From the NCBI GenBank assembly GCA_963748825.1, contig CAVVKN010000012.1:64001-128000 (forward strand): a stretch of DNA of 64,000 bases, written 5' to 3'. The notes under the pieces are model-generated. The model did not search any database. It saw only the letters and a program-made list of their open reading frames with translations, and was not told the DNA's origin. Shown here one piece after another: positions 3,347-62,944 of the stretch; position 1 is the stretch's first letter, and each line of letters opens with the position of its first letter. The DNA comes from Methanotrichaceae archaeon. GTDB lineage: Archaea; Halobacteriota; Methanosarcinia; Methanotrichales; Methanotrichaceae. Made by a program: the position numbers and the translations under genes.

Positions 3347-3374
3347 CGTCTTTTTTGTAAGAACGCAAGGACAA

Positions 3375-3413: not shown

Positions 3414-3501
3414 CGGCATCTTGACCGGGACGCCTGGCTTTCTAGGGGCCATGTCTTCCAGCTTCGCGGCGCTCTGCTGGCGGCAAGATGAGACGGCGGC
3501 T

Positions 3502-4122: not shown

Positions 4123-4228
4123 AATTTAAAGATCTTCACTTGGCGAATAGGAATCGATAATCATTATAACTGACGAAGACTTTTTCTCCTCAAAACGATA
4201 ATATTACTAGCAAGAATTACTAGCAGGA

Positions 4229-42352: not shown

Positions 42353-43324
42353 ATGAGATCGTTTTCGCCTCGCACGGCCGCCCGGGCTCTCTGGCAGATG
42401 AGGATCCGGGGGAGGCCCTTTGTGCTCTCCCACGGCATAAATGCTCGCTGCAACCTGAGCTGTCGTTTTTGCGAGTACTGGAGGCACCCAGGCCGGGAGA
42501 TGAGCACGCCGGAGATCCTGCACATGCTGGATGAGGCGCAGGATTTCGGCATAGGCGTTTACAATGCCTGGACAGTCGAGCCGCTGCTGCGAGAGGATCT
42601 GCCTGAAATACTGCGGCACGCCAAGTCCCTGGGGCTTACAACCTCGCTCATCACCAACGGCCTGCTCCTGCGCCAGAGGGCGAAGGAGCTTCCCGATCTG
42701 GACCTTCTCTCCGTCTCCGTGGACGGCATCAAGAGTTACAAAGAGCTGCGGGGCATCGATCTGCAGTCCGTCCTGGAAGGCATCCGGGCGGCGCAGCAGG
42801 CAGGCCATGAGATTCTGATGAACTGTGTCATTTCCGGCAAAAATGTGGGCGAGCTGGAGGATCTGGTGCACCTGGCCCAGTCGCTGGGGTGCTGGATATC
42901 TTTTGAGCCCATGCACGAGTCCTTCGGCATCGAGGAGAAGGTGTGGGGCTCTTTGAGGATACAGGATATTCCAGCATACGAGGAAGCGCTAGAGCGGCTG
43001 ATAGAGCTGAAGAGAAGCGGGGCGCCTATCATCAACTCCGTGACCTACCTGAAGATGATAAGGGACCTGGAGCCCAGATTCAATTGCCATGCAAGCGACA
43101 TCATTTTGCATGTGGCATCGGACGGCACTATCGAGAACTGCCGCGTGCACCGCGAGCCGCTGGGCAATGTCTCCGAGGGACTGGCAAAGGTGTGGCAGTC
43201 GTCGCAAGATAGGCGAAAGGAGATCGTCCAGGGGTGCGAAGGGTGCCTGTTCTTCGGGTATGTGGAAAACAGCCTGCTCTACGAGTTTGTGCCCGAGGTT
43301 ATGAGGCACTACGAGTGGATGTGA
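42353..43324 (+). CDS. Radical SAM/SPASM protein
   Basis: CNLSCRFC motif; C-terminal C...DG....C...CEGC. Confidence 0.9.
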   Translation: MRSFSPRTAARALWQMRIRGRPFVLSHGINARCNLSCRFCEYWRHPGREMSTPEILHMLDEAQDFGIGVYNAWTVEPLLREDLPEILRHAKSLGLTTSLITNGLLLRQRAKELPDLDLLSVSVDGIKSYKELRGIDLQSVLEGIRAAQQAGHEILMNCVISGKNVGELEDLVHLAQSLGCWISFEPMHESFGIEEKVWGSLRIQDIPAYEEALERLIELKRSGAPIINSVTYLKMIRDLEPRFNCHASDIILHVASDGTIENCRVHREPLGNVSEGLAKVWQSSQDRRKEIVQGCEGCLFFGYVENSLLYEFVPEVMRHYEWM

Positions 43325-43958: not shown

Positions 43959-44050
43959 ATGCCTGCGATATCATTTTGCTTGTGGCACCAAAAGGCAGCA
44001 TGGAAAACTGCCGGGTCCACATAACCAGCCGCTGGGCTATTGTCTCAGGG
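43959..44050 (+). pseudogene. Decayed copy of a ~92-bp piece of the radical SAM gene (43089-43180)
   Basis: atgcctgcgatatcattttgcttgtggc...aactgccgggtccac...agccgctgggctattgtctc aligns with atgcaagcgacatcattttgcatgtggc...aactgccgcgtgcac...agccgctgggcaatgtctc. Confidence 0.75.
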
Positions 44051-44106
44051 TGAAAGGAAGGCGCCTCGCTGATTTGCATGGCAATCGATTACGTCCCTGG
44101 GATCGG

Positions 44107-44143
44107 GTTGCAATTCTTGTTTTTTTGGAACTGGAAAAAATAT
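44107..44143 (-). repeat. Outlying degenerate CRISPR repeat
   Basis: GTTGCAATTCTTGTTTTTTTGGAACTGG matches the consensus at 24 of the first 28 positions; the last 9 nt have diverged. Confidence 0.75.
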
Positions 44144-44589: not shown

Positions 44590-44734
44590 AACTTGTTCTT
44601 CATGGAAATGGCCATTGTACGTGGCCGACCAGGCGTTCCCGGTCGTACCTGTGGAGTTTCAATCCTTGTTTTCATGGAACTCGCCCTCGGACTCTGGTTC
44701 ATCCTGGGCAATGCCCTTGCAGCCTTGGGGTTTC

Positions 44735-46194
44735 CCATGGAAAACCACACGAAACCAAAATCAGGAGGCGATCTATTCACCACCCCCAGATGGCCTTTTC
44801 TGGCCGACCTTGATCTCAGAAATGTCTGCGATCTCACGCATGAGAGCATTCTTCCGGCTGCTCTCTTTCAGGTGATAAAAGGCATCCACAATTGCAGCGA
44901 CCCGATCCGTTAAATGCTCTTCCTGAAATGAAGGTGCATGGCAGGGCTTATCCTGACTCGATCCCCTCTTTCTGCATTCACCTTCCAGATACAACTCCTG
45001 GTTGATCAGAAGATGATAAATGAGACAGATGAGTTTCCTGGCCACGGCAACAATCGCAACATTACGCTCCTTCTTTTTTATCAATCTCTGGAAGAATCTG
45101 GACAGCGCCGTCTTTTTCATATTTGATATGGTCTGCGCTGCTTGGACAAGTATAACTCTGATGTGCTTGGAACCCCTCTTTGTAATTCCACATTTTTTCT
45201 TCTTGCCTGCAGATTCGTTTTCTCCGGGATTGAGGCCACACCATTTTGCGAGCTGGTCCGGAGTCTTAAAATCACGGTAGTTCCCAATCTCCGACAGTAT
45301 GACCGATGCAGATGTGAATCCAATTCCAGGGATCGACATGACTATGGCCAGATCTTTGCTCTTTTGCTGAACTCCTTTCAGAACCTCAAGGCTTAGCTTC
45401 TCCATTTTGGATTCGAGATTGTCAAGGATTTCCAGAGCATCTATTAAGAGCATTCTGCTTGTATCGTTAAGACCATTTTCAAGTGCTGATCTAATCAGGT
45501 CTTGCTTCTTCCTTATCTTTCCGGAGGGTATGCCTTTCAAGATCTCTTCGATGGGCTTATTTTTAGCAAGACAGTTCAGGATGTATCTGCCGGACTTGCA
45601 GAAAATATCGTCCATGGTAGAACTGAGCTTAACCCCGCTTGATGATAGATATTTATGAATCCGATTCCTGAACTGAGTTCGTGTCTTGACATATCCGGAC
45701 CTGGCTCGGGTCATCATCCTAAGGTCTCGGTCCTCATCGGTAAATACGCGAGATCTTTTGATTTGACCGTTCAAGCAAAGGGTTGCGATTCGGTTTGAGT
45801 CTTTAGAGTCGGATTTGTCATTTGGAACGGTCTTTATCTGCAACGGATTGGCTACAATTGTATCTATGGTTTTGCTCAGAGCATCATAAATCGGCATCCA
45901 ATAGACACCAGTAGCTTCAAATGCCACTTGTTCGCATTTGTTGGCAACCAGCCAGTTGCGGAATCTCTTAAGCTCGGCTTTTGTTGTCCCAAAATTCTCT
46001 CGAATTGTCGGTACATCATCGCCTGTTATTGTGGCAACGATCAGATCTTTATGGACATCTGCTCCGCAAACTCTATCTCTTCGTTTGTTCATACACGTCT
46101 CTGCCTGATATGGGCAGATGATCTTTCCCTGAGATGGGATAATTTCCCATACGCGTTCCACGACGCAGTCCCGTATTCGGGGGGATCTTGGCCT
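44735..46194 (-). mobile_element. IS110-family element copy 1, lacking the terminal 130 bp
   Basis: Starts after spacer+GTTTC (44730-44734). Matches copy 2 up to the internal GTTTC at 46195-46199, where copy 2 begins. Confidence 0.93.
44773..46092 (-). CDS. IS110-family recombinase/transposase, 439 aa
   Basis: DEDD tetrad (GADVHK, FEATG, KSDSKDS), SIPGIG, conserved Ser in GL.P....SAG, A.VAVARKL. Confidence 0.95.
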   Translation of the reverse strand: MNKRRDRVCGADVHKDLIVATITGDDVPTIRENFGTTKAELKRFRNWLVANKCEQVAFEATGVYWMPIYDALSKTIDTIVANPLQIKTVPNDKSDSKDSNRIATLCLNGQIKRSRVFTDEDRDLRMMTRARSGYVKTRTQFRNRIHKYLSSSGVKLSSTMDDIFCKSGRYILNCLAKNKPIEEILKGIPSGKIRKKQDLIRSALENGLNDTSRMLLIDALEILDNLESKMEKLSLEVLKGVQQKSKDLAIVMSIPGIGFTSASVILSEIGNYRDFKTPDQLAKWCGLNPGENESAGKKKKCGITKRGSKHIRVILVQAAQTISNMKKTALSRFFQRLIKKKERNVAIVAVARKLICLIYHLLINQELYLEGECRKRGSSQDKPCHAPSFQEEHLTDRVAAIVDAFYHLKESSRKNALMREIADISEIKVGQKRPSGGGE

Positions 46195-46237
46195 GTTTCC
46201 CATGGAAAACCACACGAAACCAAAATCAGGAGGCGAT

Positions 46238-47557
46238 CTATTCACCACCCCCAGATGGCCTTTTCTGGCCGACCTTGATCTCAGAAATGTCTGCGATCTC
46301 ACGCATGAGAGCATTCTTCCGGCTGCTCTCTTTCAGGTGATAAAAGGCATCCACAATTGCAGCGACCCGATCCGTTAAATGCTCTTCCTGAAATGAAGGT
46401 GCATGGCAGGGCTTATCCTGACTCGATCCCCTCTTTCTGCATTCACCTTCCAGATACAACTCCTGGTTGATCAGAAGATGATAAATGAGACAGATGAGTT
46501 TCCTGGCCACGGCAACAATCGCAACATTACGCTCCTTCTTTTTTATCAATCTCTGGAAGAATCTGGACAGCGCCGTCTTTTTCATATTTGATATGGTCTG
46601 CGCTGCTTGGACAAGTATAACTCTGATGTGCTTGGAACCCCTCTTTGTAATTCCACATTTTTTCTTCTTGCCTGCAGATTCGTTTTCTCCGGGATTGAGG
46701 CCACACCATTTTGCGAGCTGGTCCGGAGTCTTAAAATCACGGTAGTTCCCAATCTCCGACAGTATGACCGATGCAGATGTGAATCCAATTCCAGGGATCG
46801 ACATGACTATGGCCAGATCTTTGCTCTTTTGCTGAACTCCTTTCAGAACCTCAAGGCTTAGCTTCTCCATTTTGGATTCGAGATTGTCAAGGATTTCCAG
46901 AGCATCTATTAAGAGCATTCTGCTTGTATCGTTAAGACCATTTTCAAGTGCTGATCTAATCAGGTCTTGCTTCTTCCTTATCTTTCCGGAGGGTATGCCT
47001 TTCAAGATCTCTTCGATGGGCTTATTTTTAGCAAGACAGTTCAGGATGTATCTGCCGGACTTGCAGAAAATATCGTCCATGGTAGAACTGAGCTTAACCC
47101 CGCTTGATGATAGATATTTATGAATCCGATTCCTGAACTGAGTTCGTGTCTTGACATATCCGGACCTGGCTCGGGTCATCATCCTAAGGTCTCGGTCCTC
47201 ATCGGTAAATACGCGAGATCTTTTGATTTGACCGTTCAAGCAAAGGGTTGCGATTCGGTTTGAGTCTTTAGAGTCGGATTTGTCATTTGGAACGGTCTTT
47301 ATCTGCAACGGATTGGCTACAATTGTATCTATGGTTTTGCTCAGAGCATCATAAATCGGCATCCAATAGACACCAGTAGCTTCAAATGCCACTTGTTCGC
47401 ATTTGTTGGCAACCAGCCAGTTGCGGAATCTCTTAAGCTCGGCTTTTGTTGTCCCAAAATTCTCTCGAATTGTCGGTACATCATCGCCTGTTATTGTGGC
47501 AACGATCAGATCTTTATGGACATCTGCTCCGCAAACTCTATCTCTTCGTTTGTTCAT
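46238..47557 (-). CDS. IS110-family recombinase/transposase
   Basis: Same protein as copy 1; start placed at MNKRRDRV. Confidence 0.95.
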   Translation of the reverse strand: MNKRRDRVCGADVHKDLIVATITGDDVPTIRENFGTTKAELKRFRNWLVANKCEQVAFEATGVYWMPIYDALSKTIDTIVANPLQIKTVPNDKSDSKDSNRIATLCLNGQIKRSRVFTDEDRDLRMMTRARSGYVKTRTQFRNRIHKYLSSSGVKLSSTMDDIFCKSGRYILNCLAKNKPIEEILKGIPSGKIRKKQDLIRSALENGLNDTSRMLLIDALEILDNLESKMEKLSLEVLKGVQQKSKDLAIVMSIPGIGFTSASVILSEIGNYRDFKTPDQLAKWCGLNPGENESAGKKKKCGITKRGSKHIRVILVQAAQTISNMKKTALSRFFQRLIKKKERNVAIVAVARKLICLIYHLLINQELYLEGECRKRGSSQDKPCHAPSFQEEHLTDRVAAIVDAFYHLKESSRKNALMREIADISEIKVGQKRPSGGGE

Positions 47558-47571
47558 ACACGTCTCTGCCT

Positions 47572-47715
47572 GATATGGGCAGATGATCTTTCCCTGAGAT
47601 GGGATAATTTCCCATACGCGTTCCACGACGCAGTCCCGTATTCGGGGGGATCTTGGCCTGTTTCAATCGCGGGATCAAACGTCCTATAAACTTGTCGGCC
47701 TTCACTGCCCATATC
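47572..47715 (-). ncRNA. Putative bridge/seek RNA of the IS110 element
   Basis: Perfect 11-bp closing stem (47572-47582 with 47705-47715) encloses a repeat-matching GAUUGAAAC and donor-matching (AU)GGGAAA. Expression is not shown. Confidence 0.65.
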
Positions 47716-48496
47716 CGGCTTAACGTGAACGGATAACAATATGTGGTTTTCCATCCGTCACGTGTGAGCCCCTGCCTGGGCTCATGGGCGTTTCAATCCT
47801 TGTTTTTGTGGAACTCGCCCTCGGACCTATATTATAGTAATGACTACTATAAGTAAAAATCCGATGTTTCAATCCTTGTTTTTGTGGAACTCGCCCTCGG
47901 ACCCATCTATGCCCAGGAATATATTCGATGTCTTTGAGTTTCAATCCTTGTTTTTGTGGAACTCGCCCTCGGACATTCCCACCTTCGAAATAGACCGAGC
48001 GTTTGAGATTGCGTTTCAATCCTTGTTTTTGTGGAACTCGCCCTCGGACCGACATAATCACCAAGACCGCCCCAATTGACGGCCTGTTTCAATCCTTGTT
48101 TTTGTGGAACTCGCCCTCGGACATTGATTACTTGTTTCATGTTCATTACCTCCCTGCTAGTTTCAATCCTTGTTTTTGTGGAACTCGCCCTCGGACTCCA
48201 AGCGATTGCCTCTGGAGAAGTTAGATCGAATTGTTTCAATCCTTGTTTTTGTGGAACTCGCCCTCGGACCGCAACAGGTGACGACCTTTCCAGCAAAGTT
48301 GAAGCTGGTTTCAATCCTTGTTTTTGTGGAACTCGCCCTCGGACTGGGACACGGCGCTGGTTCTGATGCCGATCTCGTATAGTTTCAATCCTTGTTTTTG
48401 TGGAACTCGCCCTCGGACTATAATTTTGGATTCGTCATTCATGCATCCTCACGGTTTCCCATGGAAAACCACACGAAACCAAAATCAGGAGGCGAT

Positions 48497-49816
48497 CTAT
48501 TCACCACCCCCAGATGGCCTTTTCTGGCCGACCTTGATCTCAGAAATGTCTGCGATCTCACGCATGAGAGCATTCTTCCGGCTGCTCTCTTTCAGGTGAT
48601 AAAAGGCATCCACAATTGCAGCGACCCGATCCGTTAAATGCTCTTCCTGAAATGAAGGTGCATGGCAGGGCTTATCCTGACTCGATCCCCTCTTTCTGCA
48701 TTCACCTTCCAGATACAACTCCTGGTTGATCAGAAGATGATAAATGAGACAGATGAGTTTCCTGGCCACGGCAACAATCGCAACATTACGCTCCTTCTTT
48801 TTTATCAATCTCTGGAAGAATCTGGACAGCGCCGTCTTTTTCATATTTGATATGGTCTGCGCTGCTTGGACAAGTATAACTCTGATGTGCTTGGAACCCC
48901 TCTTTGTAATTCCACATTTTTTCTTCTTGCCTGCAGATTCGTTTTCTCCGGGATTGAGGCCACACCATTTTGCGAGCTGGTCCGGAGTCTTAAAATCACG
49001 GTAGTTCCCAATCTCCGACAGTATGACCGATGCAGATGTGAATCCAATTCCAGGGATCGACATGACTATGGCCAGATCTTTGCTCTTTTGCTGAACTCCT
49101 TTCAGAACCTCAAGGCTTAGCTTCTCCATTTTGGATTCGAGATTGTCAAGGATTTCCAGAGCATCTATTAAGAGCATTCTGCTTGTATCGTTAAGACCAT
49201 TTTCAAGTGCTGATCTAATCAGGTCTTGCTTCTTCCTTATCTTTCCGGAGGGTATGCCTTTCAAGATCTCTTCGATGGGCTTATTTTTAGCAAGACAGTT
49301 CAGGATGTATCTGCCGGACTTGCAGAAAATATCGTCCATGGTAGAACTGAGCTTAACCCCGCTTGATGATAGATATTTATGAATCCGATTCCTGAACTGA
49401 GTTCGTGTCTTGACATATCCGGACCTGGCTCGGGTCATCATCCTAAGGTCTCGGTCCTCATCGGTAAATACGCGAGATCTTTTGATTTGACCGTTCAAGC
49501 AAAGGGTTGCGATTCGGTTTGAGTCTTTAGAGTCGGATTTGTCATTTGGAACGGTCTTTATCTGCAACGGATTGGCTACAATTGTATCTATGGTTTTGCT
49601 CAGAGCATCATAAATCGGCATCCAATAGACACCAGTAGCTTCAAATGCCACTTGTTCGCATTTGTTGGCAACCAGCCAGTTGAGGAATCTCTTAAGCTCG
49701 GCTTTTGTTGTCCCAAAATTCTCTCGAATTGTCGGTACATCATCGCCTGTTATTGTGGCAACGATCAGATCTTTATGGACATCTGCTCCGCAAACTCTAT
49801 CTCTTCGTTTGTTCAT
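48497..49816 (-). CDS. IS110-family recombinase/transposase (FLNW allele)
   Basis: One substitution relative to copies 1-2. Confidence 0.95.
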   Translation of the reverse strand: MNKRRDRVCGADVHKDLIVATITGDDVPTIRENFGTTKAELKRFLNWLVANKCEQVAFEATGVYWMPIYDALSKTIDTIVANPLQIKTVPNDKSDSKDSNRIATLCLNGQIKRSRVFTDEDRDLRMMTRARSGYVKTRTQFRNRIHKYLSSSGVKLSSTMDDIFCKSGRYILNCLAKNKPIEEILKGIPSGKIRKKQDLIRSALENGLNDTSRMLLIDALEILDNLESKMEKLSLEVLKGVQQKSKDLAIVMSIPGIGFTSASVILSEIGNYRDFKTPDQLAKWCGLNPGENESAGKKKKCGITKRGSKHIRVILVQAAQTISNMKKTALSRFFQRLIKKKERNVAIVAVARKLICLIYHLLINQELYLEGECRKRGSSQDKPCHAPSFQEEHLTDRVAAIVDAFYHLKESSRKNALMREIADISEIKVGQKRPSGGGE

Positions 49817-49830
49817 ACACGTCTCTGCCT

Positions 49831-49974
49831 GATATGGGCAGATGATCTTTCCCTGAGATGGGATAATTTCCCATACGCGTTCCACGACGCAGTCCCGTAT
49901 TCGGGGGGATCTTGGCCTGTTTCAATCGCGGGATCAAACGTCCTATAAACTTGTCGGCCTTCACTGCCCATATC
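49831..49974 (-). ncRNA. Putative bridge/seek RNA, copy 3
   Basis: Same sequence as 47572-47715. Confidence 0.65.
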
Positions 49975-50237
49975 CGGCTTAACGTGAACGGATAACAATA
50001 TGTGGTTTTCCATCCGTCACGTGTGAGCCCCTGCCTGGGCTCATGGGCGTTTCAATCCTTGTTTTTGTGGAACTCGCCCTCGGACCACTGCCATCAAGTT
50101 CTAATGGGACCAATTCAATTTTGTTTCAATCCTTGTTTTTGTGGAACTCGCCCTCGGACATATTAGGTGATTTTCATGAAACTATGTATTATATGTTTCC
50201 CATGGAAAACCACACGAAACCAAAATCAGGAGGCGAT

Positions 50238-51557
50238 CTATTCACCACCCCCAGATGGCCTTTTCTGGCCGACCTTGATCTCAGAAATGTCTGCGATCTC
50301 ACGCATGAGAGCATTCTTCCGGCTGCTCTCTTTCAGGTGATAAAAGGCATCCACAATTGCAGCGACCCGATCCGTTAAATGCTCTTCCTGAAATGAAGGT
50401 GCATGGCAGGGCTTATCCTGACTCGATCCCCTCTTTCTGCATTCACCTTCCAGATACAACTCCTGGTTGATCAGAAGATGATAAATGAGACAGATGAGTT
50501 TCCTGGCCACGGCAACAATCGCAACATTACGCTCCTTCTTTTTTATCAATCTCTGGAAGAATCTGGACAGCGCCGTCTTTTTCATATTTGATATGGTCTG
50601 CGCTGCTTGGACAAGTATAACTCTGATGTGCTTGGAACCCCTCTTTGTAATTCCACATTTTTTCTTCTTGCCTGCAGATTCGTTTTCTCCGGGATTGAGG
50701 CCACACCATTTTGCGAGCTGGTCCGGAGTCTTAAAATCACGGTAGTTCCCAATCTCCGACAGTATGACCGATGCAGATGTGAATCCAATTCCAGGGATCG
50801 ACATGACTATGGCCAGATCTTTGCTCTTTTGCTGAACTCCTTTCAGAACCTCAAGGCTTAGCTTCTCCATTTTGGATTCGAGATTGTCAAGGATTTCCAG
50901 AGCATCTATTAAGAGCATTCTGCTTGTATCGTTAAGACCATTTTCAAGTGCTGATCTAATCAGGTCTTGCTTCTTCCTTATCTTTCCGGAGGGTATGCCT
51001 TTCAAGATCTCTTCGATGGGCTTATTTTTAGCAAGACAGTTCAGGATGTATCTGCCGGACTTGCAGAAAATATCGTCCATGGTAGAACTGAGCTTAACCC
51101 CGCTTGATGATAGATATTTATGAATCCGATTCCTGAACTGAGTTCGTGTCTTGACATATCCGGACCTGGCTCGGGTCATCATCCTAAGGTCTCGGTCCTC
51201 ATCGGTAAATACGCGAGATCTTTTGATTTGACCGTTCAAGCAAAGGGTTGCGATTCGGTTTGAGTCTTTAGAGTCGGATTTGTCATTTGGAACGGTCTTT
51301 ATCTGCAACGGATTGGCTACAATTGTATCTATGGTTTTGCTCAGAGCATCATAAATCGGCATCCAATAGACACCAGTAGCTTCAAATGCCACTTGTTCGC
51401 ATTTGTTGGCAACCAGCCAGTTGAGGAATCTCTTAAGCTCGGCTTTTGTTGTCCCAAAATTCTCTCGAATTGTCGGTACATCATCGCCTGTTATTGTGGC
51501 AACGATCAGATCTTTATGGACATCTGCTCCGCAAACTCTATCTCTTCGTTTGTTCAT
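50238..51557 (-). CDS. IS110-family recombinase/transposase (FLNW allele)
   Basis: Same protein as copy 3. Confidence 0.95.
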   Translation of the reverse strand: MNKRRDRVCGADVHKDLIVATITGDDVPTIRENFGTTKAELKRFLNWLVANKCEQVAFEATGVYWMPIYDALSKTIDTIVANPLQIKTVPNDKSDSKDSNRIATLCLNGQIKRSRVFTDEDRDLRMMTRARSGYVKTRTQFRNRIHKYLSSSGVKLSSTMDDIFCKSGRYILNCLAKNKPIEEILKGIPSGKIRKKQDLIRSALENGLNDTSRMLLIDALEILDNLESKMEKLSLEVLKGVQQKSKDLAIVMSIPGIGFTSASVILSEIGNYRDFKTPDQLAKWCGLNPGENESAGKKKKCGITKRGSKHIRVILVQAAQTISNMKKTALSRFFQRLIKKKERNVAIVAVARKLICLIYHLLINQELYLEGECRKRGSSQDKPCHAPSFQEEHLTDRVAAIVDAFYHLKESSRKNALMREIADISEIKVGQKRPSGGGE

Positions 51558-51571
51558 ACACGTCTCTGCCT

Positions 51572-51715
51572 GATATGGGCAGATGATCTTTCCCTGAGAT
51601 GGGATAATTTCCCATACGCGTTCCACGACGCAGTCCCGTATTCGGGGGGATCTTGGCCTGTTTCAATCGCGGGATCAAACGTCCTATAAACTTGTCGGCC
51701 TTCACTGCCCATATC
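51572..51715 (-). ncRNA. Putative bridge/seek RNA, copy 4
   Basis: Same sequence as 47572-47715. Confidence 0.65.
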
Positions 51716-54700
51716 CGGCTTAACGTGAACGGATAACAATATGTGGTTTTCCATCCGTCACGTGTGAGCCCCTGCCTGGGCTCATGGGCGTTTCAATCCT
51801 TGTTTTTGTGGAACTCGCCCTCGGACTTCTTATCCATCCAAGAAGCTGCCCGCCAAGGCTCTGTTTCAATCCTTGTTTTTGTGGAACTCGCCCTCGGACA
51901 ATCGCATAATGGCGGAAAACGCGGCAATCCTGGGTTTCAATCCTTGTTTTTGTGGAACTCGCCCTCGGACTCCTCAGTGCATTGCATCAGCTTCCAAGCC
52001 TTTCCAGTTTCAATCCTTGTTTTTGTGGAACTCGCCCTCGGACCCGCGATGCTAGCCAAGCTCTCTGATATGATTATCTGGGTTTCAATCCTTGTTTTTG
52101 TGGAACTCGCCCTCGGACTTTTGGACTAACTGCTCCGATAAATCTCCTATAGAAGTTTCAATCCTTGTTTTTGTGGAACTCGCCCTCGGACGGCGGGAAA
52201 GTCGGCTGCCGGCATGGGCGATTTTGATGTTTCAATCCTTGTTTTTGTGGAACTCGCCCTCGGACCGGAGTAAGAGATTCGCGGTTATCAAATCCCAAAC
52301 AGTTTCAATCCTTGTTTTTGTGGAACTCGCCCTCGGACTTGGGGTTGGTCATGGGGAATGCAGCTCTTGGGGGAGTTTCAATCCTTGTTTTTGTGGAACT
52401 CGCCCTCGGACAAGATAGATGAGGTTTGAGCATGAGAGGCACACTGCGTTTCAATCCTTGTTTTTGTGGAACTCGCCCTCGGACTGCGGTCTCAAACGCC
52501 AGGCCGAGCCTGGTTGATGTGTTTCAATCCTTGTTTTTGTGGAACTCGCCCTCGGACAACAAGAAGTAGCCGATGCAGTCAAAGTATATGCGGGTTTCAA
52601 TCCTTGTTTTTGTGGAACTCGCCCTCGGACCCAACCAGATTAGACCATTGGTGTCCATAATTTGCAGTTTCAATCCTTGTTTTTGTGGAACTCGCCCTCG
52701 GACATCTAGATGATGCAGATTACCAGAGCCGGATTTAACCAGTTTCAATCCTTGTTTTTGTGGAACTCGCCCTCGGACCTGTTTTGCAAGCCCGAAGATG
52801 GCGGCGCGGATGGAGTGGTTTCAATCCTTGTTTTTGTGGAACTCGCCCTCGGACGTACTTTTCTGTCCTGAAGATCGTGCGCATGCGATAGTTTCAATCC
52901 TTGTTTTTGTGGAACTCGCCCTCGGACCACAATTATCCAGAACGGTGTCTCCTTCGTTGGTAGTTTCAATCCTTGTTTTTGTGGAACTCGCCCTCGGACA
53001 AAGATATGATGCTCAGATCAAAGACCTATTACATAGTTTCAATCCTTGTTTTTGTGGAACTCGCCCTCGGACTTGTCATATCTTCCAAGCATATTCCAAC
53101 GTTCTTGATGTTTCAATCCTTGTTTTTGTGGAACTCGCCCTCGGACTACGAGCGGCACCGTTGGAGATACCTTCTATATATGTTTCAATCCTTGTTTTTG
53201 TGGAACTCGCCCTCGGACAGCAAAAAGGACTTGCAACAAGCGGAACTATTAGAGTTTCAATCCTTGTTTTTGTGGAACTCGCCCTCGGACACTCCCGCAA
53301 TCGCTTCACAAATTCCGGCCATTCTCAGAGTTTCAATCCTTGTTTTTGTGGAACTCGCCCTCGGACTGTAGATGCTCAGATGGCATGATCTCATAGGTTG
53401 TGACAGTTTCAATCCTTGTTTTTGTGGAACTCGCCCTCGGACGCTGGAGCCTCGTATTGGCATCACACGAACTCATCGTTTCAATCCTTGTTTTTGTGGA
53501 ACTCGCCCTCGGACTATCCGCAGTGCCATTTATGGCAGTCTCGTATCAGGGTTTCAATCCTTGTTTTTGTGGAACTCGCCCTCGGACTTCATGCCGAACC
53601 GCTATAGCCCATGAACATCCTAAGTTTCAATCCTTGTTTTTGTGGAACTCGCCCTCGGACAAGGAATCTTCCCGTGCATTCGCAGTGATTAGGATGTTTC
53701 AATCCTTGTTTTTGTGGAACTCGCCCTCGGACTGCGAACTGGTCAGAAGAAAGAAGAACATCGTTTGTGTTTCAATCCTTGTTTTTGTGGAACTCGCCCT
53801 CGGACGTTACTCTTACGGCATCCAGTCCCGGTATTTGGGGGTTTCAATCCTTGTTTTTGTGGAACTCGCCCTCGGACGGTCGAAACATCGGGGCTCCAAG
53901 ATTGCAGAAGATGTTTCAATCCTTGTTTTTGTGGAACTCGCCCTCGGACATTATATCGCAGCTTGATCCCTCAGCTAGAAGTAATGGTTTCAATCCTTGT
54001 TTTTGTGGAACTCGCCCTCGGACTAGCTATCTGGATGAATTGAATCAGTACGTATCTGAGTTTCAATCCTTGTTTTTGTGGAACTCGCCCTCGGACACTC
54101 AGCACACACCCACACAGACGACGGGATAGATCGTTTCAATCCTTGTTTTTGTGGAACTCGCCCTCGGACACATAACCCTATTACCCGTGATCGGTTATAG
54201 TTGGCGTTTCAATCCTTGTTTTTGTGGAACTCGCCCTCGGACGCAATTTACCTCTCGCGTCCATCTTAGCATGGAACGGTTTCAATCCTTGTTTTTGTGG
54301 AACTCGCCCTCGGACGCTGATTGCGGCGCGTGGTTCATGATTAGGTGATCAGTTTCAATCCTTGTTTTTGTGGAACTCGCCCTCGGACTGTCATGCCATA
54401 GCATCTATGATCTGTCATCGAGTCAGGTTTCAATCCTTGTTTTTGTGGAACTCGCCCTCGGACGCTGGCATGAGTTCTCGATGGCATGGGGGTAGGTAAG
54501 TTTCAATCCTTGTTTTTGTGGAACTCGCCCTCGGACCTATCAGAAGGGGCCGGGTGGTTGGGGATACTGGCAGTTTCAATCCTTGTTTTTGTGGAACTCG
54601 CCCTCGGACTCTGTTTTCAGATATGCCTTATTGGTACATTCGTTAGTTTCAATCCTTGTTTTTGTGGAACTCGCCCTCGGACGTGAGACACAGTCGATGC

Positions 54701-54905
54701 AACTGTATCTTGAGACAAACTGTTTCAATCCTTGTTTTTGTGGAACTCGCCCTCGGACCTTGGAATAAGCAGAGATCGAACGATTGATGGAGGAAGTTTC
54801 AATCCTTGTTTTTGTGGAACTCGCCCTCGGACAGCATTTGCGGAAAAGACAGGCAACAGAAATATCTGGTTTCAATCCTTGTTTTTGTGGAACTCGCCCT
54901 CGGAC

Positions 54906-55064: not shown

Positions 55065-55721
55065 CTATTTCAGTTTTGTAACCGCCCCGTAACCTCTGGA
55101 GACTGACTTGCCCAGCCCCAGGAAGTCCGGGATGGCAAAGGTTGTGGTGAACTCTCCTCGTATCCCCGTGACTTTTGTCCCCTTCAGCAGGCAGATCTCA
55201 TCCTGCATCCCGCCCACCTCCAGCCGAATGTGCTCTTTGGCCACGTAGCCCAGCCCCTTGGAGGCGGAGAGGATGTTGCCCACCAGGATTCTTCTCAGCA
55301 GATCCTTTCTTTCCTCTCTGTTTGCATTTAAATATTTGGGGTAGTTGTCCTGGCTAAGTGCCAGCCAGGGCGTGGCAAAACTGTAGCTTTGGATCTTTTC
55401 GCAGCATCCGAACTCCTCGCTCTTCAGGGTAATGCCGCGCTCCATGATGCTGTACTTGCTCTCTCCCAATTTTATCTCATCGAATTTATCATAGATCTCT
55501 TTCAGGACCTCTGCCCCCTCGTTGATGCCAAGGACCAGGGGACTTCCCTCCAGCATCTTGTACTGGATGAGAGGATATTTGTAGATCAGCTTGTCCGTCA
55601 CATGCTGGTGCAGCAGCGCATGCTCATTGAAGCTGGTGGCAAAGAAGCCGCGCAGCTTCGATGCGTCCCCGTGCATGGGCGCGTCCGAGTGCAGGGTGAG
55701 GCGGAGGATTTTGAGGATCAT
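55065..55721 (-). CDS. cas6: Cas6b-type crRNA processing endoribonuclease
   Basis: KLRGFF, LHQH, Y.YPLIQYK, F.TPWLAL.Q.NY, Gly-rich loop GLGKSVSRGYG. Confidence 0.92.
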   Translation of the reverse strand: MILKILRLTLHSDAPMHGDASKLRGFFATSFNEHALLHQHVTDKLIYKYPLIQYKMLEGSPLVLGINEGAEVLKEIYDKFDEIKLGESKYSIMERGITLKSEEFGCCEKIQSYSFATPWLALSQDNYPKYLNANREERKDLLRRILVGNILSASKGLGYVAKEHIRLEVGGMQDEICLLKGTKVTGIRGEFTTTFAIPDFLGLGKSVSRGYGAVTKLK

Positions 55722-55723
55722 GG

Positions 55724-55951
55724 CTATCCTTTCTTATCGAAGAACTCTTCACGACTAATCCCCGCCTCTTTTAGAATCTCATTCAACAACCCTTTGGGAA
55801 CATCATAACCATGAAATGGAACCACCGTTGACTTTTTGGTTTCAGGGTTGTGGTAAAAATGATGGCTGCCGCTGATTCTCTCCAGCTCAAAACCGCATTT
55901 CTCAAGTATTCTAGCCAGCTTTTCCGGCGGGATGCAGGGTAGTTTAGCCAT
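55724..55951 (-). CDS. hicA: HicA-family toxin (mRNA interferase)
   Basis: LEK.GF...R.SGSH, VPFH.....GLL..ILKEAG. Confidence 0.92.
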   Translation of the reverse strand: MAKLPCIPPEKLARILEKCGFELERISGSHHFYHNPETKKSTVVPFHGYDVPKGLLNEILKEAGISREEFFDKKG

Positions 55952-55986
55952 GCCACTCAGGAACATGCTTCAAGTTGCTTAAAAAT

Positions 55987-56226
55987 TTAAGCATTTGCCT
56001 CGACTGCAATCGTGCATATCATCGAATCATCGGATTCTATGGGCACTTCTTCGCCGCGGGCGATCATGCAGGCAATAAAGCCCTCAATTGCCTCTTTTGC
56101 CATTGCCAGCGCCTCTTCAACCGTTCGCCCGAAGGTCAGGCAACCCGGCAGTGAAGGCACAATCACCGTATAAGTTCCGTCTTCCTCTTTTCGGAGCATA
56201 ATTTTATAGCGTAATGTCTTCATCAT
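55987..56226 (-). CDS. hicB: Short HicB-family antitoxin
   Basis: EEDG.Y.V.VPSLPGC.TFG.TVEEA..MAKEAI. Confidence 0.92.
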   Translation of the reverse strand: MMKTLRYKIMLRKEEDGTYTVIVPSLPGCLTFGRTVEEALAMAKEAIEGFIACMIARGEEVPIESDDSMICTIAVEANA

Positions 56227-56272
56227 AGTGGTCTCCTATCCTATATTGATATTTGATGCTGTCTTTGATCTT

Positions 56273-56341
56273 GCGGCTTTGCGGGCTCCCGCGCATGGAC
56301 GCGTGCGAGGCGGGGTGAAGCGGAGATTTTTTGGGAAACAT
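56273..56341 (-). pseudogene. cas6: Decayed 5' fragment of cas6
   Basis: Aligns with 55652-55721 (cccgcgcatggacgcgtgcgag-gcggggtgaagcggag vs cccgtgcatgggcgcgtccgagtgcagggtgaggcggag). Retains an ATG 16 nt after the cas3 stop. Confidence 0.75.
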
Positions 56342-56357
56342 ACCGCAAGCTCCCAAC

Positions 56358-58793
56358 TTAAATGATCATGGAGCCCCCTCCGGCTCCCGCTCGCATGAAG
56401 CCCGTTTCCAAATCGTAGTAGTTGGGCAGCTCATCTCTTGAAATATAACCCATATCGGAATCTTCAGCGACCAGGTTATGAGCGTATTTCTCCGGTGCGG
56501 AGATCACATACTCGCTGAAATCCTTCTTTATCTTGAGATACTTTTTCGTCCTCTCCAGATGATTCTTTTCAGACTGCATATCCAGGTATTGTTTCCAAAT
56601 CCCTGCAGCGTTATCGTCCAACTCGACAAAGACATTCACTTTGGGATAGTCCTCTTCGATGAGCTTGAAGTTCTTGTTCAGATCCTTAAACGCTAATCCG
56701 GCAATGCAGTCCAGGTTATCCTTCGACTCTTTCTCGCCCATGCCTCTCTTCACGGCTTTGAAATATTTGTTATTAAGGTCCAGGAATTCTGATTCTTTAA
56801 TTGGCCCTTTGATCTGCTTCAAAATGTCCAGCGTCTTGCTTATCAAGAATGGATCGTAAATATATTTATAAAATTCTTTTCGATCATCTTTCAAAATGAA
56901 AATCGATACTATGCCCTTTTCGTCTTTGGCGGAGTGTCTATTGCATCTGCCCGCTACCTGGTTGATCGAGTCTAGTGGTGCAAAGTCCCTGTAAACGATA
57001 TCTGCATCAATATCTACGCCAGCTTCTATGAGCTGAGTGCTGACAATGACCTTTCTTTTTCTCGGTGATTCTTTGGATTCTCTTATCTCATTTATCCGCG
57101 TCAACCTCTCCTTTGGGATTACATTTGTGGAGAGGAAAAATCTCTTTGTATTCTCCAGTTCCAATCCTTGAACGAATTTATAAATCTCTTGAGCCGAGCC
57201 TATCGTGTTTAGAACGATCAAGAAATCTTTCTCTTTCTTCTGGAGCAAGTCCTCATTAAGCAAGGCTTTGAATTCATCTAGGGTCAGTGCTCTCTCAATT
57301 CTTGGTATGAGCTCAATTCTATTCAAGCCCCGGAAGTATTCCTCTTTCCTTTGTGCTATCTCCTTGATCTCTCCTTTTGCTTCATCGAAGATGAGCGGCT
57401 GGGTCGCAGTGATGAAGACAACGTAAGTGTTGAACTTCTCGCAAAGCAGCTTCAATGAATCGTGTATCAGCAGCCAGTAATGGTGAGGCACAGCCTGGAC
57501 CTCATCCAGAATGATTATGGAGTTAGCAAGCTTGTTGAATTTGCGAAGCTGTTTATTCCTGTTGGAAAAGAGTGTGTTAAAGAGCTGCCAGAATGTGGTT
57601 ACAATTATCTCTGCATTCCAGCCTTCCAGGAGCAGCAGGCTTTTATCGACTTCGTACTCTTTCTCCTCGGTCTTGTACTTCACATCCGAAAGATGGTGAT
57701 GTTTGAGAAGTAGCCGGGAATCTTTGGTGTCTCCTCCCACAACATCATCAAAGACCTTGTAGTTTTGATCGATTATGCTCAGAAAAGGCAAAGCGTAGAT
57801 TATTCTGGGCTTGATTTTTCGCTCATTCTCCAATCGCTCTCTCAGTTTCAGGGAAAGGGAAAGAGCGGTGAGCGTCTTGCCCGTGCCTGTGGGAACATTC
57901 AGGGAGAGGATCTTATCGTCCAGGTTCCAATTTTTGATTCTTTCCACAGCCTCTTCATATATCTGATTCCTGAGGCCATTGATATTGTCCTGATTGGATG
58001 AAAAGCCCTTTGCATCCCTATAGTCATCCACCAGCTTTGATGAAAGGCCCAGCCGGTCCAATTTGATTCCATCTAGTCCTGCATCAGTCTTGTCAGCATC
58101 TAAGAGTGCAGAGTAAATAAACTGAGATAAAAAATACGGGTAAAGATCGCTTTTTTCACTCAAGTCCCTAATGAAACGCTTCTCCTTTCTGCCAATATCT
58201 TTTGTCGCATCTTTTAAAATATAATCAATAATATTATCCACGTCGAGTTTTAAGCTCATATTCTCTTTAGACAGAAGCAGTGCCAGTATTTCTCTGATCT
58301 CTGCCATGTCAATGGTGTTTATTTGTTCTACCGCCACCCTCAGAATTTTGTCCTTGTCGGCATCGATTTCCTTAATTTCATCCATTGCATTTGGTAGATT
58401 TCCGTGATGCCTCTTCACTGCCAGGAAAGACAAGATGGGCAAGTATTCAGCCAAACTACCTCTTCGCCCTGTCTGACTTAAGTATTCCTTTATCACTGCA
58501 TACGTAAAGAAAGCCGAGAGCAGGCCGTGATGAGTGTTGTCCTTGGCTTTGAGAGACTTCTTTTTATTCTCATCGGTCTCAATAATGTAATCCTGGAAAA
58601 ATTTCGTAGCTTTTCCCAGGTCGTGCGTCACACCCATGAGGTAAGCAGCGTCTGTCAAGAGATCCTTGTCATCTATGTTTAGAGATTTGTCTGTAACAGT
58701 TTTCCTGCTCAATTGCCCTACTCTGCTCAAGTGATCCACCAGGCGTTTATCCGGGTGAGACTTGAGCTTAAAGGAATACGATTCGCTCGCCAT
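56358..58793 (-). CDS. cas3: Cas3 HD nuclease-helicase
   Basis: L.DHL, HDLGK, HH, DAD; PTGTGKT, DEVQ, TAT, STQLIEAGVDID, QVAGRCNR. Confidence 0.97.
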   Translation of the reverse strand: MASESYSFKLKSHPDKRLVDHLSRVGQLSRKTVTDKSLNIDDKDLLTDAAYLMGVTHDLGKATKFFQDYIIETDENKKKSLKAKDNTHHGLLSAFFTYAVIKEYLSQTGRRGSLAEYLPILSFLAVKRHHGNLPNAMDEIKEIDADKDKILRVAVEQINTIDMAEIREILALLLSKENMSLKLDVDNIIDYILKDATKDIGRKEKRFIRDLSEKSDLYPYFLSQFIYSALLDADKTDAGLDGIKLDRLGLSSKLVDDYRDAKGFSSNQDNINGLRNQIYEEAVERIKNWNLDDKILSLNVPTGTGKTLTALSLSLKLRERLENERKIKPRIIYALPFLSIIDQNYKVFDDVVGGDTKDSRLLLKHHHLSDVKYKTEEKEYEVDKSLLLLEGWNAEIIVTTFWQLFNTLFSNRNKQLRKFNKLANSIIILDEVQAVPHHYWLLIHDSLKLLCEKFNTYVVFITATQPLIFDEAKGEIKEIAQRKEEYFRGLNRIELIPRIERALTLDEFKALLNEDLLQKKEKDFLIVLNTIGSAQEIYKFVQGLELENTKRFFLSTNVIPKERLTRINEIRESKESPRKRKVIVSTQLIEAGVDIDADIVYRDFAPLDSINQVAGRCNRHSAKDEKGIVSIFILKDDRKEFYKYIYDPFLISKTLDILKQIKGPIKESEFLDLNNKYFKAVKRGMGEKESKDNLDCIAGLAFKDLNKNFKLIEEDYPKVNVFVELDDNAAGIWKQYLDMQSEKNHLERTKKYLKIKKDFSEYVISAPEKYAHNLVAEDSDMGYISRDELPNYYDLETGFMRAGAGGGSMII

Positions 58794-59472
58794 TCCCGAC
58801 CTCCCAAAGCTCTTTTACCTTCGCTTTGATTTTCTTTCCGTTCCTTTCAAACAGAATCTCGCGGTAGTCGGTTACCTCTCTTGCTTCTCCCATCTCGCCT
58901 GGCATCACTTCTGAGAAGTATTCCTTTCCTTCCTCGAAATCCGGCTCAAGAAGGCAATTACCCGGCACCACGCTATCTATATCCTGGACATCTTCTCCTG
59001 AACTCTTCAGACCAAACTCTCCTATGAACTTGAAGTTGCAGATGAGCTCGCTTAGTCCAAGACACGGAGTGTATACAGACTGATGGCTGGTGAGCAAGTC
59101 TTTCAGCTTTTTATATAATTGCTCATCGGAGTGAGAGAAATAAATTCTGTACTTCGGATCTTTGACGAACTCGAATCTGATCTGGGTTCTGTTCTTGATC
59201 AGATGCATCTTAATTGCGCTCTTGGTATCAATCAGGTTCTCTCCAATCCTCACTTTTTTTACAGGCGCCAGGATTTTGCAGCCGATTTTGGCATCAACCT
59301 TAAAGAAGTGCCTGAAATACTCCGTTTTGTCCAGACCGACGATGGCCCCGATCAGCCCTGAGAGAGCAGTTCGGGGCGGGAAAGAATAGGTGAGTGGAGA
59401 GCTGGTAGAGTAATTCTTCCTGAAGTGGGCGTAGTCCCCCCACACATCGAATACTATTACTCTCTCCGGCAT
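58768..59472 (-). CDS. cas5: Type I-B Cas5
   Basis: FDVWGDYAHFRK...SSPLTY.FPPRTAL.GLIGAI.G; TPCLG. Confidence 0.95.
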   Translation of the reverse strand: MPERVIVFDVWGDYAHFRKNYSTSSPLTYSFPPRTALSGLIGAIVGLDKTEYFRHFFKVDAKIGCKILAPVKKVRIGENLIDTKSAIKMHLIKNRTQIRFEFVKDPKYRIYFSHSDEQLYKKLKDLLTSHQSVYTPCLGLSELICNFKFIGEFGLKSSGEDVQDIDSVVPGNCLLEPDFEEGKEYFSEVMPGEMGEAREVTDYREILFERNGKKIKAKVKELWEVGNGERIVFL

Positions 59473-59479
59473 CTGGACC

Positions 59480-60400
59480 TCAGAACGCAATTGGCTTTAT
59501 GGCTATGCCGGTAGCTGCTGCCAATCCTTCAATTGGGAAACCGGCCCCTTCTTTGCAGAACTTAATCCTGCCGTCCACGCAAATCTCAATATCCTTGATT
59601 GAGCCCTTTTCCGCAGCAAGTTTCTTGACCAACTCTGATATCTCAAGCTGGTAATCTACGGTGTCACGAATGTTCTCATGAGGCATCTCGGTTACCAGCT
59701 TTAGCATCTTATCTAGATCCCCAATATGATAGTTCTCTTTGCTGTAATTCACTTTGAGGAGCAACCTTGGAACCTGTCCTGCTTTGGATCTGGAAATCAG
59801 GCTCTTGGTTCCATTCCAAATGCCTTCTAGCAAGAGCTTTAAATCATCCTCGGTAAGATGAGTGTGTTTGGCAGCGTTCTCGTTTACGATGCCATAAAAG
59901 GAGATAAGCGAATAGGGCAGAAAGTCCTCTTCTCTAAACGTTGCCTGCTTAGAACCCTCCTTAGAGGCAAAGGCTCCGGTTCCCTTAATATGCATCATAG
60001 TAACACGATGGAGCGAACGGCCCATCTTAAACTGCACTGGACCGGTATAGATTATCGAGTCCTCTTTTAAAGGTATTACTCCACCGAAGAGACGAATATC
60101 GATGCACTCGCCCAAAATTTTCTCGGCATCATTACCAAAGTTGCCTGCTCTCATCTTTCCATCTTGGATAAGACCTTTCTCTTGGTCGTAGACTACTTCC
60201 CTTACAAAGATCTCAAGGCCTTTGAAATTGTGAAGGTAGTCCCGGATGGTCCTTTTCAATCTGACATCTGTTACGAGGTTGATGCCGGTCTCTTCATCAA
60301 TCCGAGGCTTGTTCTCGTCCATTGGATCTCCGTTAGGATTTCCGTCTCTAATGTCGTAGATAAAGAGAATTTCTGATCTGTTCTTAACTTCCTCGTTCAT
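59480..60400 (-). CDS. cas7: Type I-B Cas7 (Csh2)
   Basis: GNPNGDP..EN.PRID, VTDVRLKRTIRDY, DIRLFG, TGPVQF. Confidence 0.96.
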   Translation of the reverse strand: MNEEVKNRSEILFIYDIRDGNPNGDPMDENKPRIDEETGINLVTDVRLKRTIRDYLHNFKGLEIFVREVVYDQEKGLIQDGKMRAGNFGNDAEKILGECIDIRLFGGVIPLKEDSIIYTGPVQFKMGRSLHRVTMMHIKGTGAFASKEGSKQATFREEDFLPYSLISFYGIVNENAAKHTHLTEDDLKLLLEGIWNGTKSLISRSKAGQVPRLLLKVNYSKENYHIGDLDKMLKLVTEMPHENIRDTVDYQLEISELVKKLAAEKGSIKDIEICVDGRIKFCKEGAGFPIEGLAAATGIAIKPIAF

Positions 60401-60402
60401 TT

Positions 60403-62274: not shown

Positions 62275-62290
62275 CCAAAATCACCATCAA

Positions 62291-62944
62291 TCAAACGCAT
62301 ATATTCCTGTACGTGCAGTCCACGCACCTGGCCTTCTGCTTCGTCCCATCGGGAAAGTATCCCCTCTGAATTATCATCAGTATCTCGCGCACAATCTCCT
62401 TCGCCTTCTCATAATCTTTTTGCTGAAAGTCTATTTCCGCCACATAATTGTTGCTCCTGGTGTAGCAGACAAAGCCCCGCTTCACATCCACGCCGAAGTG
62501 CTCCATGATGAGCAGCCCGTAAAGTGCCGCCTGAAACTTGTGCGTCCTGTAAATGGTGTTTTTAAACTCGGCATACTTGTAATCCAGAGGTGCAGCCGTT
62601 CCATCTTCCAGAAAGAGAACCTCATCCACCTCTCCCTTGAAGTGGTACTTGTGCGAAGTCAGATAAACCGAGATCTCTTTTCCCGTGCAATTCAGCTTCT
62701 TTCTCACGTAATCCCGGTTCACCTTCTCCCGGATCTCGTGCAGCTCTCTGCCCTTCAAAACCTTGAAGCGCCGCTCCTCTCTCTGGGCGATGCCCAGGCA
62801 GTGCATGAAAAATATGAACCTGGGGCAGAACAGGTACTCCAGCGCATCGGATACCGTGACGAAAATCTCCTGCGCGGGTGCGGGCTCTCGCGCGCCCTCC
62901 TGCGCCTGCCCGCGCGTGGCCGCTGTATCATCATCTGTCTCCAT
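62291..62944 (-). CDS. cas4: Cas4 nuclease
   Basis: EY.FCPR, G.VDE...P.DYK, Q...Y, C-terminal C..C.Y...C. Confidence 0.95.
   Translation of the reverse strand: METDDDTAATRGQAQEGAREPAPAQEIFVTVSDALEYLFCPRFIFFMHCLGIAQREERRFKVLKGRELHEIREKVNRDYVRKKLNCTGKEISVYLTSHKYHFKGEVDEVLFLEDGTAAPLDYKYAEFKNTIYRTHKFQAALYGLLIMEHFGVDVKRGFVCYTRSNNYVAEIDFQQKDYEKAKEIVREILMIIQRGYFPDGTKQKARCVDCTYRNICV

Follow-up and report, generated by a model that had tools for sequence, protein, structure and literature searches.

The CRISPR locus and its insertions

The stretch analysed here (64 kb, called the window when the whole of it is meant) is part of contig C12 in the genome of a Methanotrichaceae archaeon (G000; 2.88 Mb in 25 contigs, designated C plus a number, as loci compared with it are designated L plus a number), and it holds a CRISPR array that has been entered at three of its repeats by an insertion sequence (IS) of the IS110 family. 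The array occupies 44656-54905 on the minus strand and has the features expected of CRISPR: 55 repeats of 37 nt (minus-strand sequence GTCCGAGGGCGAGTTCCACAAAAACAAGGATTGAAAC, ending 3′ in ...AAGGATTGAAAC), a spacing of 71-76 nt, unique spacers and adjacent cas genes. The cas operon (55065-62944, minus strand) lies upstream of the leader and encodes, from 62944 downward, Cas4, Cas8b (TM1802), Cas7, Cas5, Cas3 and Cas6b, the cas6b gene lying just past the array end at 54905; Pfam recognized Cas_TM1802 (584 bits), Cas_Cas7 (213 bits), Cas6b_N and Cas6b_C, the Cas3 HD and helicase domains, Cas5 and Cas4. This gene set points to type I-B.

We take the array to be read on the minus strand, because Rfam CRISPR-DR7 matches the repeats on that strand (36.0 bits, 1 bit short of the gathering score of 37), the terminal repeat at the low-coordinate end (44656-44692) is decayed, and the leader and cas operon lie at the opposite, high-coordinate end. 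Rfam strand choice is treated as unreliable, a second class of repeats discussed below (class B) matching DR60 on the opposite strand. In CRISPR RNAs (crRNAs) processed by Cas6 the last 8 nt of the repeat become the 5′ handle, and the terminal word ATTGAAAC of the repeat would presumably be that handle.

The IS is 1,590 bp long and present in four near-identical copies, all on the minus strand. Read in the direction of its transposase gene, a full copy begins with its left end (LE, GCCCATGAG...) directly after a repeat (...GGATTGAAAC), continues through 232 nt of non-coding DNA and the transposase gene to its right end (RE, GGTTTTCCATGG), and is followed by GAAAC (GTTTC on the plus strand) and then a spacer. 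Copies 2 (46200-47789), 3 (48459-50048) and 4 (50200-51789) are complete, have their core GTTTC at 46195-46199, 48454-48458 and 50195-50199, respectively, and lie directly downstream, in the crRNA sense, of intact repeats at 47790-47826 (abutted by the LE of copy 2), 50049-50085 and 51790-51826. Copy 1 (44735-46194) is truncated at its 5′ side, lacking LE nt 1-130 and beginning exactly after an internal word GATTGAAAC; its core is at 44730-44734, with a spacer beyond. The first site is therefore a head-to-tail dimer of full copy 2, GAAAC and truncated copy 1. BLAST of the IS against the window returned these four copies only, as units starting at 44730 (1,465 bp, counting one 5-nt core) and at 46195, 48454 and 50195 (1,595 bp each). 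Several traits of the IS110 family are seen, namely GAAAC flanking both sides of all copies, no classical terminal inverted repeats and orientation-specific insertion.

A sequence-only reading of the window had described three array positions of identical structure, spacer-GTTTC-IS-complete repeat, in one orientation, with unrelated spacers and with no copy elsewhere in the 64 kb. That description is accurate for 48454 and 50195, where a 1,590-bp IS and a complete 37-nt repeat are found; at 44730 the IS does lie at GTTTC beside a spacer, and the dimer with its truncated copy had been missed. Orientation, the difference between spacers on either side and the lack of a further copy in the 64 kb all hold up.

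Every insertion site has a complete repeat on the LE side and the next spacer on the other, with the IS co-directional with crRNA transcription, and identical 1.6-kb copies at the same base of a 37-nt repeat rule out chance. The spacers on both sides of every insertion are all different, which argues for separate insertion events and against segmental duplication. Spread of the copies within the array by homologous recombination or duplication between repeats, rather than by targeted insertion, would draw on the ample homology that repeats offer and on the pairwise identity of the copies (1 with 2 and 3 with 4, the pairs differing by one base, at unit position 1230). Its probability is nonetheless close to negligible, since no spacer-IS-spacer block is shared between sites, the RE side holds 5 nt of the repeat only rather than a whole repeat, and the same junction recurs in repeats of four unrelated families and at unique sites in about 30 genomes, as described below. 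The occupied repeats are nos. 43, 45 and 54 of 55, counted from the leader, so that the loss to the host should be small. When spacers were compared with the IS, the longest match of 51 spacers was 11 nt, so none is self-targeting.

Transposase

The transposase gene of copy 2 (46238-47557, minus strand) encodes 439 aa plus stop from an ATG at 47557, a column that is conserved in the alignment of related copies; the same gene lies at 44773-46092, 48497-49816 and 50238-51557 (minus strand) in copies 1, 3 and 4. Its assignment to IS110, as the sequence-only reading had proposed, is borne out by Pfam matches to DEDD_Tnp_IS110 (PF01548, 1.3e-21, residues 10-151) and Transposase_20 (PF02371, 5.4e-26, residues 251-332), and by the NCBIfam equivalog NF033542, 'IS110 family RNA-guided transposase', at 257.9 bits versus a cut-off of 140. 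The IS621 transposase in the PDB (8wt6) aligns at E 5.5e-08, pairing aDvhk with iDtak, vaFEATG with ciEATG, DkSDskDs with nKTDtvDa and NESaG with YESGs, the N-terminal stretch being weak (8.7 bits). The residues D, E, D and D and a C-terminal serine (ES-G), which we take to be the catalytic positions of IS110 transposases, are all aligned here. No relative of the transposase was found among IMG/VR proteins, and no exact 30-nt match to the LE in IMG/VR.

Non-coding region and putative target guide

The 232 nt between the LE terminus and the transposase gene (47558-47789, minus strand, in copy 2; 49817-50048 and 51558-51789 in copies 3 and 4; only 46093-46194 kept in copy 1) form a putative bridge RNA gene. 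A consensus fold was predicted from an alignment of 19 copies, 70-100% identical, from the window genome and related genomes. It has a fully conserved long-range stem, GATATGGGCAGTG paired with CATCTGCCCATATC, inside which a GGCN/NGCC stem closes a loop; two of its pairs show compensatory changes, columns 95/136 in 2 sequences and columns 96/135 in 4. This target loop holds a small hairpin and then a guide block; one side of the internal loop has the sequence GAUUGAAAC, which is that of the CRISPR repeat 3′ end on its top strand. The putative left target guide proper, GATTGAAAC (47660-47668, minus strand; 49919-49927 and 51660-51668 in copies 3 and 4), is identical to the last 9 nt of the repeat.

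Relatives of the IS carry other words at the guide position, and these change along with the DNA flanking the LE. Guide and flank read GATTGAAAC and GGATTGAAAC in the window clade, CCCTAAAC and CACCCTAAAC in the group of L034 and L036, GGCTAAAAC and GGGGCTAAAAC in the copies of genome G003, GTTTAAAAC and CGTTTAAAAC at L043, CTGCGGAAAC and CCTGCGGAAAC at L049, and TTTGAAAC in both at L042, with weaker agreement at L038, L047 and L048. Over the 6 nt before AAAC in these nine guide lineages, guide equals flank at 37 positions, a value that none of 133,496 re-pairings of guides with flanks reached (mean 16, sd 3.0, maximum 27). Such covariation in nine lineages argues that the target is set by an internal guide, as in IS621, and together with the placement of GATTGAAAC in a bridge-RNA-like loop it makes an element programmed against repeat ends in ATTGAAAC the best reading of the data, in agreement with what had been proposed from the window alone.

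A transposase that itself recognizes ATTGAAAC, the internal GATTGAAAC being a binding site or a coincidence, is quite unlikely. The guide RNA is, it is true, a prediction from sequence, and a complementary pair of RE and LE segments described next could be inverted repeats bound by protein; against this, guide block and flank covary across nine lineages in which both the protein and the non-coding DNA around the block remain homologous, and the protein scores above the cut-off of the NCBIfam equivalog for RNA-guided transposases. The complementary pair consists of an LE loop, ATGGAAAAC (LE nt 36-44; 47746-47754, minus strand), and the subterminal RE sequence GTTTTCCAT. In the general form ATGxxAAAC at the LE and GTTTxxCAT at the RE, four compensated dinucleotides occur in four lineages; ATGGAAAAC may be either a candidate donor guide or part of subterminal inverted repeats. 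The loop pairs with the strand opposite to that paired by the IS621 left donor guide, and the RE end plus core form a near-palindrome. No guide covarying with the LE start was found among the aligned lineages.

Census of insertion sites

Near-identical copies of the IS were found in records of Methanothrix sp. or Methanotrichaceae archaeon, and the LE is present in 40 of the 105 genomes of the family. We counted LE matches with query start ≤4 as junctions in these genomes and called an array verified when at least two further copies of the 28-nt flank lay at a spacing of about 72 nt. Of the 61 readable LE junctions, 41 end in exact ATTGAAAC. Verified arrays account for 25 of the 61 (11 class A, 3 class B and 11 class C repeats); six more have repeat-like flanks with no verified array and the rest lie in unique DNA. 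One class C assignment (L021) was a false pattern call and belongs with the unique flanks, and two loci of the same tabulation (L036 and L049) carry other guides. Metagenome contigs were scanned by exact match, 80 of 101 stretches being taken in as loci, and 15 of the 83 matches were dropped for a flank shorter than 12 nt or the same 45-nt flank. The 68 distinct junctions that remained end in exact ATTGAAAC in 60 cases and lie in arrays in 47 (18 class A, 11 class B, 13 class C and 5 of a fourth class). Independent events are fewer than these counts, because one ancestral insertion is in some cases represented by junctions from different genomes (L044 and L065; L074 and L079).

The repeat classes have little in common beyond ATTGAAAC. 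Rfam CRISPR families match classes A and B; for class C repeats (L029, L039) there is no Rfam match at E ≤ 0.01, their CRISPR status coming from spacing alone. The fourth family, ATTGCAGAGCCTATCCCGATGAAAAGGGAATTGAAAC, is occupied at its last base at five loci (L095, L104, L135, L143 and L174). In all array insertions, from family genomes and metagenome contigs alike, the LE adjoins the repeat 3′ end. At one locus (L012, the same as L025; positions 1-4317) the IS links 17 class B repeats on its upstream side with class A-like repeats on its downstream side, either because two arrays are adjacent or through fusion by recombination between two IS copies.

Two older copies in the window's own genome are associated with ISL3-like elements rather than arrays: a full-length copy on C5 (93% identical) and a 316-nt fragment on C23 (94%), sitting at ATTCAAAC and ATTAAAAC, with flanks ending in CCTATTCAAAC and CACTATTAAAAC, each one letter off the target word. 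The former (L005, C5:26695-31293) is enclosed in an ISL3-like element, where it separates the end repeat from the transposase start, and the latter (L006, C23:220541-223857) is cut off by an ISL3-like end; mobile elements are thus nested in each other at both loci.

Sister lineages use other sites. All six readable flanks of the G003 lineage share one context. Its copies (L035, L084-L089), with guide GGCTAAAAC, lie between ...CTTCTGGGGCTAAAAC and GAAAC TAATGGTTTTCCTAGCGCG, a multi-copy repeat, and those with guide CCCTAAAC (L034, L036, L090-L093) are found with the near-palindrome CCCCACCCTAAA(C/G)GGATGGGG, another multi-copy repeat.

Target word versus CRISPR specificity

The sequence-only reading had called the element specific for CRISPR repeats. 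The motif at the repeat end stands; specificity for CRISPR is too strong, in that 36 of the 61 family-genome junctions and 21 of the 68 metagenome junctions lie outside verified arrays. Its expectation for the flanks fared better: a majority of copies at non-repeat sites lacking the word would have spoken against targeting, and exact ATTGAAAC instead precedes most LE junctions in both sets. The remaining junctions, outside arrays, are found at this 8-nt motif in other parts of the genome, and recognition of the word ATTGAAAC alone suffices for these data.

A guide aimed at an 8-nt word with no selection for arrays, which merely hold about half of the ATTGAAAC sites, would refine rather than replace the reading of a guided element, and we rate it somewhat below an even chance. 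Site counts speak in its favour. Of the 138 ATTGAAAC sites of G000, the array holds 54, the IS copies 5 (their own guides) and the rest of the genome 79; across 30 genomes of the genus that are at least 90% complete the word occurs 3,100 times versus 1,313 for a reversed-word control, so that at most about 58% of sites are surplus, contributed by arrays and other repeats. The share of insertions in arrays, 41-51% in genomes (25 of 61, or with the six repeat-like flanks added) and 69% in metagenome contigs (47 of 68), is about the same as the array share of motif sites, which argues for specificity to the motif and not to CRISPR as such. Free matches are also available outside arrays: two dispersed elements of G000 carry unoccupied ATTGAAAC, one in 4 copies (C5:3013, C7, C10 and C18) and one in 3 (C6, C11 and C22), the 4-copy repeat offering an unoccupied 10-nt match, GGATTGAAAC. 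A perfect left half-site is thus not always used.

Other observations point to selection for arrays. In class A and class B repeats the match to the guide extends over 9 nt rather than 8; all three of the youngest G000 copies lie in the array, for which the word alone gives a probability of (54/133)^3 = 0.07; and each sister lineage is tuned to a multi-copy repeat of its own, which suggests that guides are selected for abundant, harmless repeats. We think that the guide studied here was probably selected because arrays supply many harmless sites.

Proposed mechanism of insertion

We hold with considerable confidence that this is an active archaeal IS of the IS110 family, 1,590 bp long and bounded by GAAAC, that chooses its target by an RNA-type guide in its own 5′ non-coding region. 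The guide GAUUGAAAC would pair with the repeat end's bottom strand, as the left target guide of IS621 does, and a circular donor with the junction ...CCATGG-GAAAC-GCCCATGAG... (that is, ...TTTTCCATGG-GAAAC-GCCCATGAGCCC...) would recombine at the core with that repeat end. GAAAC follows the RE in 29 of 34 cases, even at sites where another letter precedes AAAC on the LE side. Since only this G varies between the two sides and it stays constant on the RE side, it belongs to the element, and the crossover would fall within AAAC. The product would be an IS with an intact repeat on one side and the following spacer on the other, always in the orientation of crRNA transcription. We infer the action of the guide as RNA, the circular intermediate and the exact crossover point.

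The right side of the target appears not to be read. The 5′ side of the target loop (GACAAGTTTAT in the window) could serve as a right target guide: its reverse complement agrees with the right flank of three other lineages (7 of 9, 8 of 10 and a run of 7 nt), and in the ATTGAAAC clade right flanks are random with respect to it. A target chosen by its left half-site would allow insertion beside any spacer, and every repeat ending in ATTGAAAC, other genomic ATTGAAAC sites and the element's own guide DNA would then be targets. The GACAAGTTTAT stretch (47685-47695, minus strand, and the same place in copies 3 and 4) is conserved and contains TTTATA; its ACAAG is the same as the 5 nt preceding GATTGAAAC in class A repeats.

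Self-targeting may explain the truncated tandem copy. Let A be the first 130 nt of the element, ending with the guide, and B the rest. The guide-coding DNA, ...GATTGAAAC/AGGCC, is a perfect left half-site, and self-insertion there would give a nested form A/A-B-GAAAC/B. The window dimer is A-B-GAAAC-B and metagenome contig L109 is repeat-A-A-B, each equal to the nested form minus one duplicated part. At L109 (minus strand, nt 114-375) the first 131 nt up to the guide are tandemly duplicated before a full copy in a class C repeat, mirroring the tandem of the window.

Several points weigh against this account. None of the 105 family genomes holds the nested form from which the tandem would derive. 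IS621 reads both half-sites, whereas the 34 right flanks here fit the predicted TTGTCG at chance (mean 1.44 of 6, versus 1.5 expected). The order of the loops differs from what we take to be the IS621 order. An Rfam 15 scan of 44600-51900 at E ≤ 1 gave CRISPR-DR7 only and no bridge-RNA match. The RNA, its ends and the circle junction are, moreover, deduced from DNA sequence.

The region from 44.5 to 52.3 kb is, finally, known from the assembly, the public runs consisting of short contigs, and the four copies, or at least the tandem, might be an artefact of assembling repeat-rich DNA. The tandem joint RE-GAAAC-AGGCC occurs in only one of the 105 family genomes, G000 itself. In public sequencing runs the best run shared 0.45 of the words of the stretch, and four runs were examined, all as short Logan contigs, none of which spans a junction of repeat with LE or of RE with spacer with 31 letters on each side; the nearest, a 51-nt contig from an RNA library, reaches 21 letters into the LE. 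These runs lend no support to either the assembly or transcription. Contigs from RNA libraries cover parts of the IS and cannot show transcription, ends or strand. An artefact is most unlikely all the same, given the fixed single-base difference between copies 1/2 and copies 3/4, the distinct spacer at each junction and the equivalent repeat-LE junctions in many independent assemblies.

A mini element some 85 bp long, consisting of LE nt 1-44, a stretch of about 25 nt and the final 15 or so nt of the RE, was observed in at least 20 related genomes and not in G000 (family-genome loci L041, L044-L046 and L061-L083; metagenome loci L106, L107, L117, L127, L139, L157 and L168). It has the flanks of the full IS, ATTGAAAC and GAAAC, often lies in CRISPR repeats and looks like a non-autonomous derivative; having neither guide nor gene, it must be moved in trans.

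The element may, further, use the machinery of CRISPR expression, host crRNA maturation making the guide of the transposon, a suggestion that we regard as rather doubtful. Array insertions put nt 1 of the bridge-RNA gene right after the repeat in the direction of the pre-crRNA, so that the leader promoter would transcribe both guide RNA and transposase. Cas6b would then cut 8 nt upstream of the element, giving a bridge RNA with a crRNA-type 5′ handle; the 85-bp mini elements would ride on that guide RNA and transposase; and the element might silence or rearrange the spacers behind it, as perhaps in the class B/class A hybrid array at L012.

Relation to known systems and significance

The guidance of IS110 and IS1111 elements by bridge or seek RNA and their homing on repeats are established, according to the accessible parts of two reports (PMC11208160; PMC11187229). 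The left target guide of IS621 was recognized by its carrying the top-strand sequence of the left target and core (PMC11208160), and here too the guide equals left target half plus core. Judged from the part of that report available, the two systems further share the same two protein domains with catalytic positions aligned, a long 5′ non-coding region with structured RNA (predicted here), a short core at both ends and a multi-copy genomic repeat as natural target, repetitive extragenic palindromic elements in the case of IS621 (PMC11208160). By the same available part, they differ in the archaeal host, in the core (within AAAC here, CT in IS621), in the CRISPR repeat ends as target, in the right half-site, which is apparently not read here, in the candidate donor pairing with the opposite strand, and in the place of the guide, which here follows rather than precedes the other side of its loop (PMC11208160).

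The sequence-only reading knew of no described case. A precedent does exist in a 2016 survey of Thermoanaerobacter arrays, whose accessible text reports three IS110 copies splitting one long array with the same flanks, as well as a dimer of IS110 and a MITE (miniature inverted-repeat transposable element), the last two of which have counterparts here (PMC4852346). That account concerns bacteria and is descriptive, its accessible text naming no guide, target word or mechanism (PMC4852346). The guided targeting proposed here offers a mechanism for such scattered older reports of IS110 copies, dimers and MITEs in arrays.

IS1000 of Thermus thermophilus we take to be of the IS110 family. In the available portion of the report on it, 32 bp at its catalogued end are identical to host CRISPR repeats, as expected if the reference copy sits in a repeat, and its authors read this as IS sequence recruited as CRISPR repeats, with no targeting proposed there (PMC6352166). 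In Sulfolobus, the CRISPR-repeat-binding protein Cbp1 was found on ISC1229, likewise an archaeal element of the IS110 family with sequence bound by such a protein; array insertion is not among what is reported in the part of that source seen (PMC10883916). Speculatively, Cbp1 binding on ISC1229 could reflect a repeat-like guide. Elements of the IS1111 group aim at integron attC sites, and IS4321/IS5075 at Tn21 inverted repeats; these relatives are alike in homing on the conserved ends of another element's repeats, and their targets differ from the one described here. IS1111-group elements have their guide RNA downstream of the transposase, by the accessible text (PMC11187229).

A literature search whose coverage left out subscription journals and supplements returned no paper tying a bridge or seek RNA guide to CRISPR repeats. 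What is new here is explanation and breadth: a guide to a word common to several repeat families, half-site targeting, guide-gene self-targeting and a mini derivative, in archaea. IS110 elements are known to use a programmable RNA to find harmless multi-copy repeats, and in this case the repeat is the host's immune memory. Because the guide matches the part common to at least four Methanotrichaceae repeat families, one guide would open every array of the host and its relatives. Each new spacer acquisition creates a new target site, and each insertion costs the host one spacer and may cost expression of those behind it. Natural targeting by the left half-site alone also bears on how bridge recombinases can be programmed, the guide-encoding DNA being itself a target and so a design hazard.

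Other features near the array

About 520 bp past the terminal repeat, at 44098-44132 of the window, lies a decayed repeat-like stretch, about 69% like the repeat, which is perhaps an old array end. Farther out, near a radical-SAM gene, a 62-nt direct repeat occurs at 43089-43150 and 43959-44020, its two copies 77% alike and 870 nt apart.

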